Of a stretch of 42,391 nucleotides of DNA, positions 1 to 42,391 are shown piece by piece; position 1 is the stretch's first letter, and each line of letters begins with the position of its first letter. The notes below the pieces were generated by a model. The model saw only the letters and a list, made by a program, of their open reading frames with translations. It was not told the DNA's origin and did not search any database. This stretch comes from an uncultured Chryseobacterium sp. (GTDB lineage Bacteria; Bacteroidota; Bacteroidia; Flavobacteriales_F; PHOS-HE28): contig CAZQFG010000003.1 of NCBI GenBank assembly GCA_964592515.1, positions 1 through 42,391 on the forward strand, written 5' to 3'. The position numbers and the translations under genes are program-made.

Positions 1-64
1 GCGGCGGTCTTGAAAACCGCTTTACCGCAAGGTAACGGGGGTTCGAATCCCTCCCTCTCCGCCA
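1..64 (+). tRNA. tRNA-Ser (anticodon TGA), 5'-truncated by the window edge
   Basis: Anticodon stem GCGGT(4-8)/ACCGC(16-20) with loop CT-TGA-AA; long variable arm TTACC-GCAA-GGTAA; T-arm GGGGG-TTCGAAT-CCCTC; ends in discriminator G + CCA (61-64). Confidence 0.95.
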
Positions 65-40057: not shown

Positions 40058-41392
40058 TCAGAGCAGTTCGTTCGCCAGATTGGCCAGCGGGCTGCGTTCT
40101 CCTTTCTCCAGGGTGATATGCGCGAACAGGGGGTCGCCCTTGGCCTTGTCGATCAAGTAGCTGAGGCCGTTGCTCTCCGTGTCCAGGAAGGGCGTGTCGA
40201 TCTGATGCACATCGCCAGTGAACACGATCTTGGTGCCTTCACCCGCGCGGCTGATCACGGTCTTCACCTCCAACGGGGTGAGGTTCTGTGCCTCATCGAC
40301 AATGAAGAAGATGTTGGCCAGACTGCGTCCACGGATGTAGGCCAACGGTGCAATGGCGATCTTCTCGTTCTCCAGCATCTCGTCAATGCGCTTCGGCGTG
40401 CTATCGTGCTTTTCGAACTGGCCCTTGATCAGCTTGAGGTTATCCCACAAGGGCTGCATGTACGGGTCCAATTTGCTCTGGATGTCGCCGGGCAGATAAC
40501 CAATGTCCTTGTTGCTCAATGGCACCACGGGGCGTGTCACGTAGATCTGGCGATAATCACGGCGCTGTTCCAATGCACAAGCCAGGGCGAGCAGCGTTTT
40601 ACCGGTACCTGCAGCACCTTGCAAGGTCACCAGCTTGATCTCCGGATCCAACAGGGCGCTCATGGCCAGCGCCTGTTCCGCGTTCTTCGGACCGATCCCG
40701 AACACGCTCTGCTTCTCCACGCGGTCCACATGACCTGTGCGCGGATCGTACTTCGCGAGGATGCTCTTCTTCTTGTGTTTGAGAATGAAGAAGTGATTGC
40801 CCTTGGGCTTTTCCATGCCCAGTTCCGAAACCTCGATGCTGCCCTCGGAGAACAACCGATCGATGCGCTCTTCAGAGTAGTCATCCACAACTGTGCGGCC
40901 GGTGTAGAGCTTCTCACGCACATCGCGCACCTTGCCGGTGAGGTAATCCTCGGACAGCAGGTTCAGGCTTTTGGCCTTCAGTCGGAGCGCAATGTCCTTG
41001 GTGACCAACACCACCTTACGACCAGGGTTCTGGCGTTGCAGGGTAAGGGTGGCGTTCAGGATCTGGTGATCGTTCTTGGCGTCGGCAAAGACCTTGGTGG
41101 CATCCACGCCGTTCAGGTCATGCTTGGCCACCACCTTGAACTTGCCGTGCGTGGGCCCGTTCAACGGTATCCAATCGGTCAGCACATCGGTCTTCGCGAT
41201 GTCATCCAGATGGCGGATGAACTCCCGCGCTTCAAAGTTGATGGTGTCATTTCCTTTCTTGAACGTGTCGAGCTCTTCCAGGACTTGTATCGGGATGGCC
41301 ACGTCGTGCTCTTCAAAGTTCTCGATGGCCGAGTGGTCGTAGAGGATCACGGAGGTATCCAGTACGAAGATCTTGCGGTCTTTTTTCTTCAT
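40058..41392 (-). CDS. PhoH family protein with N-terminal PIN domain (PhoH2/YlaK/YbeZ type)
   Basis: VLDTSVIL (PIN), ND..IL, LVTKD..LR.KA, GAAGTGKT, IGYLPG, YIRGRS, IVDEAQN, GD..QID, GERS.LA; -7 box TAGCTTTG at 41415-41422. Confidence 0.93.
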   Translation of the reverse strand: MKKKDRKIFVLDTSVILYDHSAIENFEEHDVAIPIQVLEELDTFKKGNDTINFEAREFIRHLDDIAKTDVLTDWIPLNGPTHGKFKVVAKHDLNGVDATKVFADAKNDHQILNATLTLQRQNPGRKVVLVTKDIALRLKAKSLNLLSEDYLTGKVRDVREKLYTGRTVVDDYSEERIDRLFSEGSIEVSELGMEKPKGNHFFILKHKKKSILAKYDPRTGHVDRVEKQSVFGIGPKNAEQALAMSALLDPEIKLVTLQGAAGTGKTLLALACALEQRRDYRQIYVTRPVVPLSNKDIGYLPGDIQSKLDPYMQPLWDNLKLIKGQFEKHDSTPKRIDEMLENEKIAIAPLAYIRGRSLANIFFIVDEAQNLTPLEVKTVISRAGEGTKIVFTGDVHQIDTPFLDTESNGLSYLIDKAKGDPLFAHITLEKGERSPLANLANELL

Positions 41393-41450
41393 TCGATCAA
41401 GGAACGGTGTGCATCAAAGCTATCCGCCACTTTTCCGGAAGCCGGATCCA

Positions 41451-41471
41451 TGTGGATCGCACTTATCCACG
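41451..41471. promoter_or_regulatory. Pair of inverted DnaA-box-like sites
   Basis: TGTGGATCG (41451-59; 2 mismatches) and TTATCCACG (41463-71; 1 mismatch to TTATCCACA). Confidence 0.4.
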
Positions 41472-41519
41472 ATCGATCGTGTTCATCAACGGAACATCAG
41501 CACAGTGTAGGGCGTGTGT

Positions 41520-41559
41520 AAAAAATGAAGCGGGGACCACCGTTTTGGCGATCCCCGCT
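41520..41559 (-). terminator. Rho-independent terminator, minus strand
   Basis: Minus strand AGCGGGGATCGCC-AAAAC-GGTGGTCCCCGCT-TCATTTTTT; two pairs are G-U only in this orientation. Confidence 0.85.
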
Positions 41560-41784
41560 CCCATCCGACGTTGGCCTTGGCCTCCATCGTATGCCCTCAT
41601 TCCTTGCGCCCTCCATGGGTGATAGCACCCTATGGAGCGATCCCTTGTGGGGGCACGTCTGGCATGCCGCCCGGGTCGTAGCTGGGTTTCTTACCAAACC
41701 CGCCGTAAGCCGTGGCTCACGATGTGCATCGACCCTTTCCCGTTGTGCGTTTCAGCACGATCGAATGATGCAATGAACGTTGGT
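41520..41784 (-). ncRNA. Candidate structured non-coding RNA (~265 nt), family not recognised
   Basis: Bounded by a -33/-7 promoter and an intrinsic terminator; no credible protein ORF; several local hairpins and long-range stems. Confidence 0.6.
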
Positions 41785-41788
41785 GAGC

Positions 41789-41820
41789 CGAAAGTACCCC
41801 AGTGACCTTGCGGACATCAA
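41789..41820 (-). promoter_or_regulatory. Bacteroidota promoter (-33 TTG, 21-nt spacer, -7 TACTTTCG)
   Basis: Minus strand CTTG at 41821-41818, 21-nt spacer, TACTTTCG at 41796-41789. Confidence 0.65.
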
Positions 41821-41836
41821 GTTTTTCGACCCCGGT

Positions 41837-41845
41837 TTATCCACA
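41837..41845 (+). promoter_or_regulatory. Consensus DnaA box
   Basis: TTATCCACA exact match, just upstream of the -33 element of the candidate ncRNA promoter. Confidence 0.5.
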
Positions 41846-41863
41846 AGTTGTGCACCGCCACTA

Positions 41864-42391
41864 TCACTGCGCCACTTGGATCAAGCGTATCACACGCACG
41901 CCATCGGGGCCCAGCAGACGAACGCTGTAGACGCCGCTGGACTGTTCGCCCAATTGCAGCCATTGGCGCCCTTGTACCGTGGTGTTCTGCCAATGAGCCA
42001 CGCGTGCGCCGTTCGGTGCGATCACATCCACCACCCGATGATCGTCCGGCATGATCAGCAATTGTCCTTCGGGGTGTTGGCCGCCCCACTGTATGCGCGA
42101 ACGCTCCGCAACATCACCAACACCCGTGCAGGGGTCGATCACAACAGCGACGAAAGACTGTGCATCGGTGCATGGTGCCACGCCTTCGATCTCGTAGGTG
42201 TACAAACCCGAAGCACCTGTTGATGGCACCAGGGTCCCATCGAACGCCCCACCGCCCGGCGCGGTCCATGTGCCCCCTTCATCGGCACCGGCCAACAAGG
42301 TGAGCAGATCGATGGACGCACCGTTCACGCAAACGGTGTGTGTGGTGCTCGTTCCCACGTTCGGCGCCGCGTTCACCGTGATCGATATCGC
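41864..42391 (-). CDS. C-terminal part of a T9SS-secreted repeat protein (5' end outside the window)
   Basis: APNVGT...VC...IDLLTLLAGADEGGTWT...G.Y.Y...PC repeat unit, then a CTD-like tail VIAPNGARV...SSGVYSVRL...RLIQVAQ; frame open to the window edge. Confidence 0.8.
   Translation of the reverse strand, partial: AISITVNAAPNVGTSTTHTVCVNGASIDLLTLLAGADEGGTWTAPGGGAFDGTLVPSTGASGLYTYEIEGVAPCTDAQSFVAVVIDPCTGVGDVAERSRIQWGGQHPEGQLLIMPDDHRVVDVIAPNGARVAHWQNTTVQGRQWLQLGEQSSGVYSVRLLGPDGVRVIRLIQVAQ

Follow-up and report, generated by a model that had tools for sequence, protein, structure and literature searches.

The stretch of DNA considered here is a window of 42,391 nucleotides (nt), positions 1 to 42,391 of contig CAZQFG010000003.1, from the genome of an uncultured Chryseobacterium sp. 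(assembly GCA_964592515.1; G000 below). The subject is the spacer 41393–41863, read on the minus strand, which is flanked by an open reading frame (ORF) ending at 41864 and by phoH, a gene of 444 amino acids starting at 41392. Of the upstream ORF, 175 residues lie inside the window, and no Pfam family was recognized in them. Very probably the spacer holds a real, independent gene, equipped with its own promoter and terminator, whose product is a structured non-coding RNA about 265 nt long. Its features are as follows.

41855–41837, minus strand: putative operator GTGCACAA-C-TTGTGGATAA, two tandem units, each similar to a reverse-complemented DnaA box
41820–41818, minus strand: -33 element TTG of a Bacteroidota-type promoter, read from the sequence
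41796–41789, minus strand: -7 box TACTTTCG of the Bacteroidota-type promoter
41784–41520, minus strand: predicted RNA gene, about 265 nt, with the inferred start at A41784 and the end at the last U of the U-run
41783–41767, minus strand: 5' strand of the closing stem P1, CCAACGUUCAUUGCAUC, from the minimum-free-energy fold
41778–41771, minus strand: boxA-like string GUUCAUUG, at the 5' end of the RNA and inside the P1 5' strand
41701–41684, minus strand: hairpin H-A, a GGGUUU/AAACCC stem of 5–6 bp with the hexaloop GGUAAG
41668–41652, minus strand: hairpin H-B, stem GGCAU/GUGCC, loop GCCAGAC
41637–41611, minus strand: variable hairpin, CUCCAU-A-GGGUG ... CACCC-AUGGAG, from the minimum-free-energy fold
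41610–41594, minus strand: 3' strand of P1, GGCGCAAGGAAUGAGGG, purine-rich, just before H-C, from the minimum-free-energy fold
41593–41562, minus strand: hairpin H-C, capped by a CAAG/YACG tetraloop
41561–41527, with the U-run at 41525–41520, minus strand: intrinsic terminator H-D, from the terminator scan and covariation

The initial annotation of this DNA, made from the letters alone, had proposed an uncharacterised multi-stem RNA transcribed from its own promoter to its own terminator, and this proposal is borne out by the lack of any Rfam match, by covariation, by conservation and by RNA-library contigs that cover the RNA alone. Both promoter elements that it had named, the TTG and TACTTTCG, are present. 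A -7 box of the TAnnYYBV type (a permissive regular expression) occurs at a matching distance in 68 of 76 relatives, many of which carry the canonical TTTG ... TAnnTTTG; -7 boxes of the TAnnTTYG type also occur. Because a sigma-70 scan of the region found no promoter, as expected for the phylum Bacteroidota, the promoter assignment rests on the conservation of these motifs. The strong terminator with strand-fixing G-U pairs was likewise found: its stem has 15 pairs, ten of them G-C in the terminator scan, and the three G-U pairs within the stem, together with the U-run, place the RNA on the minus strand. The sequence of the terminator stem is unusually conserved, yet covaries where it is altered, and a 26-base exact pattern taken from it occurs in 32 records of metagenome-assembled genomes (MAGs).

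The fold is far more stable than expected from composition. A 276-nt stretch folds at -128.1 kcal/mol, as against -95.6 ± 5.0 kcal/mol for 200 shuffled sequences, none of which was as stable (z = -6.5). Among 64 sequences, 94.6% of the cells in the four helices H-A to H-D are paired, and 28 of the 34 pairs show double changes; in 500 shuffles none of five measures was reached even once, and helices with slid partners were paired in only 34–50% of cells. Covariation among relatives, which had been suggested as a check on the prediction, is thus clearly present. By helix, the H-A stem is 98% paired (double changes in 4 of 4 pairs), H-B 89.2% (5 of 6), the tip of H-C 98.4% and its lower stem 84.3% (9 of 9 for the hairpin), and H-D 98.8% (10 of 15). 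The loop of H-A, UGGUAAGA, is invariant in all 22 aligned sequences, and GCCAG of the H-B loop is kept in at least 90% of the same 22. Hairpins predicted earlier at 41701–41684, at 41637–41611 and in GUGCUGAAACGCAC all exist, the latter two in the minimum-free-energy fold. The hairpin 41637–41611 varies in length and is absent from the shortest relatives, whose cores measure 143–154 nt; peripheral hairpins in general are gained and lost among relatives while the core is retained. A three-way junction in the 5' domain, seen in single minimum-free-energy folds, was rejected, as it was supported neither by the comparison of cognate and non-cognate strands nor by local z-scores.

The 5' end appears to close the molecule through the long-range stem P1. 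When 68 full-length relatives were folded singly, at least five of the first 30 nt paired with the 38-nt window ending at the start of H-C in 51 of them. In an alignment-free test with the 24 nt of the 5' end, cognate duplexes averaged -17.1 kcal/mol versus -12.7 kcal/mol for non-cognate ones, which was matched in 0 of 2000 permutations; kinship among the sequences inflates such permutation counts, and the control windows carry an equal bias. No cognate excess was seen in any of four control windows, one of which was a segment proposed in the initial annotation (cognate -14.2, non-cognate -14.4 kcal/mol; 1501 of 2000 permutations). The two long-range stems of that annotation, 41724–41714 with 41595–41585 and 41783–41776 with 41572–41565, did not hold: they are 55.9% paired in 22 relatives, a value equalled by 81 of 500 shuffles, their compensatory counts are no higher than in shuffles, and both of their 3' partners sit instead in the strongly covarying local hairpin 41593–41562. 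The idea of a 5'/3' closing stem survives in part, since the 5' end does seem to close the molecule, with 41610–41594 as its partner and not 41572–41565. That P1 joins the 5' end to the purine-rich stretch preceding H-C is supported but not proven, and so is the architecture that would follow if it forms, namely a core folded into a closed domain of several helices, with two hairpins on its 3' side.

Two covariance models, R1 built from 22 sequences and R2 from 64, were used to survey the distribution of the RNA, which is present in a single copy in G000 (R1: 151.5 bits, E = 4.9e-41, minus strand). One full-length R1 match was found in 70 of 101 genomes of the genus, and one match each in 95 of the 130 genus genomes besides G000. 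Counting G000, 96 of 132 genomes of the order are matched, the sole genome outside the genus being without a match. The conservation in relatives that had been named as a check was therefore found, most species of the genus having one copy. Over a class-wide sample of 151 genomes, R1 matches are confined to the genus, apart from one match to the terminator only. The broader model R2 recognized full-length relatives in three of four sampled genomes of a second bacterial family (E = 7e-14 to 2e-7); over the order to which this family belongs, 7 of 24 genomes have one. These distant relatives retain the promoter, the closing stem (ACCAAAC with GUUUGGU), a hairpin capped by CACG and a similar terminator, and are without the exact GGUAAG loop. 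Two of them in genus g14 (L166 and L167) are longer, very rich in purines and full of GGA/AGGA strings. Weak R2 matches were also obtained in a sub-clade of the genus without the RNA, in G070, G004, G055 and G012; inspection covered the first two, which proved to be the ends of coding genes plus a terminator. BLAST reaches only the 3' 40–80 nt of the RNA in relatives, and despite such short matches the spacers upstream of phoH orthologues align as the same RNA. All named records with the terminator pattern are MAGs, mostly labelled Flavobacteriales or Bacteroidota/Bacteroidetes bacterium and in three cases Chryseobacterium, and most of the DNA sequencing runs containing the window stretch are metagenomes of bioreactors, sludge or wastewater. 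Judged from these sequences, the family is so far known from two order-level lineages of uncultured Flavobacteriales-like Bacteroidota of sludge and wastewater.

Five complete or near-complete genomes of a sub-clade without R1 matches were inspected, and the RNA is truly absent from them: their phoH spacers hold no such element. The RNA is therefore dispensable in part of the genus. The candidate that the RNA persists in this sub-clade in a divergent form was rejected, because pattern matches there were no commoner than those of a reversed-pattern control. One genome (G003; L188 = G003:C2:126360–127960, about 1310–1500) has the upstream ORF adjoining phoH across a spacer of about 190 nt without the RNA. 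This spacer keeps remnant-like strings, such as TGTTCAAAGG and GGCACGGCC, whose persistence suggests that the RNA was lost secondarily in G003.

No known RNA family accounts for the element. The scan against Rfam 15 (4227 models), which the initial annotation had called for, yielded nothing at gathering score over the whole window except a partial tRNA at 1–61 (plus strand, RF00005, 29.4 bits, cut by the window start), and at E<=10 over 41350–41900 only two chance matches to snoRNA models of 13 bits. As had been noted from the letters, there are no hallmarks of tmRNA, RNase P, SRP or tRNA: ARAGORN found no tRNA or tmRNA over 41300–42000, and RNase P RNA and SRP RNA are located elsewhere in G000 and in four relatives. 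A protein sponge of the CsrB/RsmZ type was rejected, since the CsrA family (PF02599) was not found in any of five genomes in which the controls matched, and an Hfq-dependent small RNA was rejected because Hfq (PF17209) was found in none of the five. Among the nearest parallels are the orphan motifs of the same phylum, Bacteroidales-1 (RF01693), Bacteroides-1 (RF01694), Flavo-1 (RF01705) and Bacteroid-trp (RF01692), which are listed in PMC2864571 and are likewise lineage-restricted, structured discoveries of comparative genomics with no assigned function. However, none of them matches the region at E<=10, and the present RNA is larger, with distinct conserved loops. No RNA beside phoH in Bacteroidetes was found described in the article texts and abstracts searched, and phoH is not mentioned in the main texts of PMC5737381 and PMC2864571. 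With no Rfam match and no description found in the literature, the RNA founds a new family within bacterial structured non-coding RNA, of which it is the first member to be described.

Four RNA-library runs from four studies were compared with 40900–42391. Three of them, all metatranscriptomes, gave one contig each, and all three contigs lie within the predicted RNA, at 41553–41763 (depth 30), 41581–41771 and 41594–41734, with zero contig cover over either neighbouring gene. Beyond its matched part the last carries 18 letters foreign to the window, which we take to be sequencing-adapter sequence. The fourth run (X10), filed as a single-organism transcriptome, contains strain contigs 95–99% identical across 40900–41857, that is, over phoH, the RNA and the spacer; since these contigs cover the RNA and its flanks alike, the run is uninformative on transcription. 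The three metatranscriptome contigs hint that the RNA is relatively abundant in nature, and its transcription there is supported but not proven.

What such an RNA might do is suggested by its architecture. Under the reading that we prefer, the stable folded core would act in trans by binding a protein or a small ligand; the UGGUAAGA loop, the GCCAG loop and the conserved terminator stem would serve as recognition surfaces; and the operator upstream of the promoter would regulate synthesis of the RNA. Action through the fold is favoured over action through a seed by the closed core, the invariant loops, the variable periphery, the conserved 3' hairpin and the apparent abundance. That the gene is real and its product is also a trans-acting RNA binding a protein or a small ligand, taken together, seems to us moderately probable. 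The fuller combination, in which the core acts in trans, the loops and terminator stem are its recognition surfaces and the operator controls it, is offered tentatively and falls a little short of an even chance.

Several points weigh against this reading. There is no match in 35 of the 130 genus genomes. The 64-sequence alignment used for covariation was fitted to a covariance model, which favours the helices of that model; RNAalifold on a plain MAFFT alignment already gave H-A to H-D, compensatory changes falling on 20 of 34 pairs. When P1 is scored by column, 61.7% of its cells pair in the MAFFT alignment, a value that 33 of 500 shuffles reach, and 57–75% pair in a fitted alignment derived from a 246-position model without the terminator; from this weak column-wise support, the register of P1 evidently shifts between lineages. 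Helices of the 5' domain gave 94 of 2000 permutations in the cognate/non-cognate test (control, 36 of 2000), and their local z-scores average -0.88. The RNA-library contigs carry no strand, end or level information and carry-over of DNA into RNA libraries is possible, so that abundance is hinted at and not proven. The binding of a protein or ligand, finally, is read from architecture.

The strongest alternative is a trans-acting small RNA that base-pairs with mRNAs, the UGGUAAGA and/or GCCAG loops being the seeds and the remainder a scaffold. The stand-alone promoter and terminator would suit such an RNA, as would the location of the strongest sequence conservation in single-stranded loops; small RNAs of Bacteroidota act without Hfq, which was found in none of the five genomes. 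However, at least six helices and a closing stem around about 190 nt are unusual for seed-type small RNAs, the terminator stem is conserved in sequence, and the GGUAAG loop is not intact in the distant relatives. The one candidate target examined, the phoH leader, was rejected: it is complementary to the purine-rich strand of P1 in G000, but across 49 species there is neither an excess of complementarity over shuffles nor co-evolution, cognate pairs averaging -12.4 kcal/mol, non-cognate pairs -12.2 and shuffled ones -11.8. We consider base-pairing possible, and on this evidence rather unlikely.

The neighbouring gene raises a different possibility, that of a riboswitch or attenuator in the leader of phoH, with P1 in the role of aptamer stem and the terminator in that of expression platform. 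The features on the phoH side of the spacer are as follows.

41481–41393, minus strand: phoH promoter region, with CACGATCGATCGTGGATAAG at 41481–41462, the -7 box TAGCTTTG at 41422–41415 and the ATG at 41392
41405–41397, minus strand: boxA-like string GUUCCUUGA, ahead of the phoH ATG
41392–40058, minus strand: phoH gene, 444 amino acids, a fusion of PIN_4 and PhoH (PhoH2 type) by Pfam

Among 76 loci, phoH lies downstream on the same strand in 56, mostly 108–170 nt past the terminator, and the upstream ORF precedes the RNA in 58 (both neighbours in 41 loci, the upstream ORF only in 17, phoH only in 15 and neither in 3). This frequent order, the riboswitch-like succession of a P1-closed domain and a terminator, and the CACC..CGUUCNUUGA that the RNA and the phoH mRNA have in common within their first 20 nt speak for a leader. 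The likeness to riboswitches extends to the multi-helix core, the invariant loop nucleotides, the variable peripheral hairpins and the 3' intrinsic terminator, often followed by a gene on the same strand. Nevertheless, the RNA is an independent gene and not a phoH leader, because phoH is absent downstream in 20 of the 76 loci and has a conserved promoter of its own. Loss of either neighbour leaves the promoter and terminator of the RNA in place; in G007 and G009 the upstream ORF precedes the RNA and phoH is elsewhere in the genome, and none of the three distant relatives examined lies beside phoH, L166 and L167 having other neighbours and no homologue of phoH or the upstream ORF within 1.5 kb. 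The -7 box, the -33 element and the operator of phoH, which stand past the terminator, are strongly conserved in aligned relatives, and the predicted phoH promoter region is retained in the five genomes without the RNA. Further against a leader, the RNA-library contigs cover the RNA and not phoH, no known riboswitch model matches, the downstream gene varies, and H-C separates P1 from the terminator; no helix switching between terminator and anti-terminator was apparent by eye, no systematic search having been made. The earlier remarks that phoH has its own -7 box, TAGCTTTG, and that the RNA is thus unlikely to be a mere leader were both correct, and the riboswitch or attenuator that had been kept as an alternative fails on the loci without phoH and on the distant relatives. 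A cis-acting phoH leader is, all told, distinctly improbable.

Some side observations concern phoH itself. In one locus (L041 of G064) the terminator and the phoH promoter are set apart by an extra insertion, and phoH stands 276 nt past the RNA match, compared with about 110–170 nt at most loci. Among 60 other genomes of the genus, 59 have the gene at 80–99% identity. In G001 and G016 its match is split and shows an in-frame TGA, so that phoH may be broken in these two.

It is highly improbable that there is no RNA gene at all, the spacer being instead a DNA-level element (binding sites, or something origin-like) or the 3' untranslated region of the upstream ORF with its terminator. DnaA-box-like motifs do occur in the spacer and the upstream ORF adjoins it in 58 of the 76 loci, but the compensatory changes keep G-C, A-U and G-U pairs, the last of which are strand-specific, which points to selection on an RNA. 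Moreover, a promoter lies between the stop of the ORF and the RNA, 18 of the 76 loci are without the ORF, and the region has a G+C content of 62% and lacks an A+T-rich stretch for unwinding. A small protein gene, such as the 12-codon ORF MHIVSHGLRRVW (41729–41691, minus strand) offered earlier as another explanation, is barely conceivable, since this ORF, although it exists in the window, is found in only 2 of the 68 relatives of full length (G000 and one nearly identical to it) and has lost its ATG in the closest other species (86.6% identity over the spacer), while 21 of the 68 have no ATG ORF of at least ten codons, the others differ in ORF position and length, and no ORF is conserved among them.

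Returning to the preferred reading of a trans-acting, protein- or ligand-binding RNA, two elements at its upstream end bear on its control. The putative operator is conserved as GTGCACAA-N-TTGTGCATAA, about 49 nt ahead of the -7 box: TGTGNAWAA occurs in 45 of 68 relatives (53 if one mismatch is allowed) and, in 43 of the 45 carriers, at 48–50 nt before the box. We take TGTGNAWAA to be the reverse complement of a relaxed DnaA-box consensus. This conservation suggests that the operator is a protein binding site and that the RNA is under the control of a DNA-binding protein. A similar GATCGTGGATAA is found in G000 upstream of phoH, of a gene of the GyrB/ParE type, of one with a PHP domain (DnaE type) and of one with a Por_Secre_tail domain, and the shared motif may mark a common regulon. 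Sites of the GATCGTGGATAA / TTGTGGATAA motif in G000 are at 41837–41855 and 41462–41481 of the window and on contigs C17 (23968–23979), C143 (7295–7306) and C15 (12552–12563), with further ones on C79, C91 and C255.

The second element is the boxA-like string at the 5' end. Of 68 RNAs, 39 have GUUC[ACU]UU within their first 30 nt, at +7 to +10 (CGUUCUUUGA-like), and the 16,462 nt of these RNAs contain it at no other place; it is extended to ..[GU]A in only 13 of the 68. In three complete genus genomes (L181–L183, in G125, G083 and G072) the 16S gene is preceded, at about 100–109 nt, by GTTCTTTGA in the rRNA leader. Soon past the first promoter, one leader repeats the exact GTTCTTTGA and two show the near-matches CGTTCTTTT and CGTTCTTTGG. 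This GTTCTTTGA resembles the gamma-proteobacterial boxA consensus of rRNA leaders, GYTCTTTAANA, as quoted in PMC5725501; the 5' end of the RNA carries GUUCAUUG. Where the rRNA copies have U, the RNAs of this family often have A or C, and the motif is absent from 29 of 68 family members and from the distant relatives. The 5' end may load Nus factors; because the string doubles as a strand of P1, its conservation is ambiguous and could be explained by that role alone. Within G000, a boxA-like string also stands just ahead of the RNase P RNA (C302) and in a leader with an rRNA-type promoter (C168). As a general motif of 5' untranslated regions it was rejected: CGTTC[ACT]TTGA occurs 33 times in G000, as against a rough chance expectation of about 20, and mostly within genes.

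By analogy, the RNA could be the core of a new abundant ribonucleoprotein or a decoy with a logic like that of 6S RNA, tied to the control of growth and replication. The idea, which we regard as speculative and improbable, derives from the tandem DnaA-box-like units shared with the regions before dnaE, gyrB/parE-type and PIN-PhoH genes and from the 5' end that mimics boxA. If it were true, the RNA would titrate or load a transcription or replication factor, and the GGUAAG and GCCAG loops would be its protein-binding face. Like 6S and 6S-Flavo RNA, it is stand-alone, non-coding, a few hundred nucleotides long and apparently abundant, and the 6S-Flavo motif (RF01685) is listed for Bacteroidetes in PMC2864571. 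The 6S models RF00013 and RF01685 matched neither the region (E<=10) nor five genus genomes, so that the 6S role is formally unfilled in these five; the controls were weak, the 6S model matching only 5 of 14 control genomes and 6S-Flavo none. In shape the two differ, since the present RNA is a multi-helix domain with two 3' hairpins and not a long rod with a central bubble; it has no long bubble hairpin closed by both ends, its 3' end is the terminator hairpin H-D, and 35 of the 130 genus genomes yielded no match to it.

Compared with ordinary small RNAs, large structured ones whose helices covary and whose loops are invariant are rare, and earlier examples often proved to be ribozymes, riboswitches or the cores of protein complexes. 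We know of nothing reported on RNA-based regulation in these bacteria of sludge, wastewater and bioreactors, which are represented by MAGs only. For now, the finding means a solid new orphan RNA family, dispensable in part of its genus, and not a new mechanism. The RNA has become testable, with defined coordinates, a covariance model that matches genomes across the order, and a four-helix consensus plus P1.

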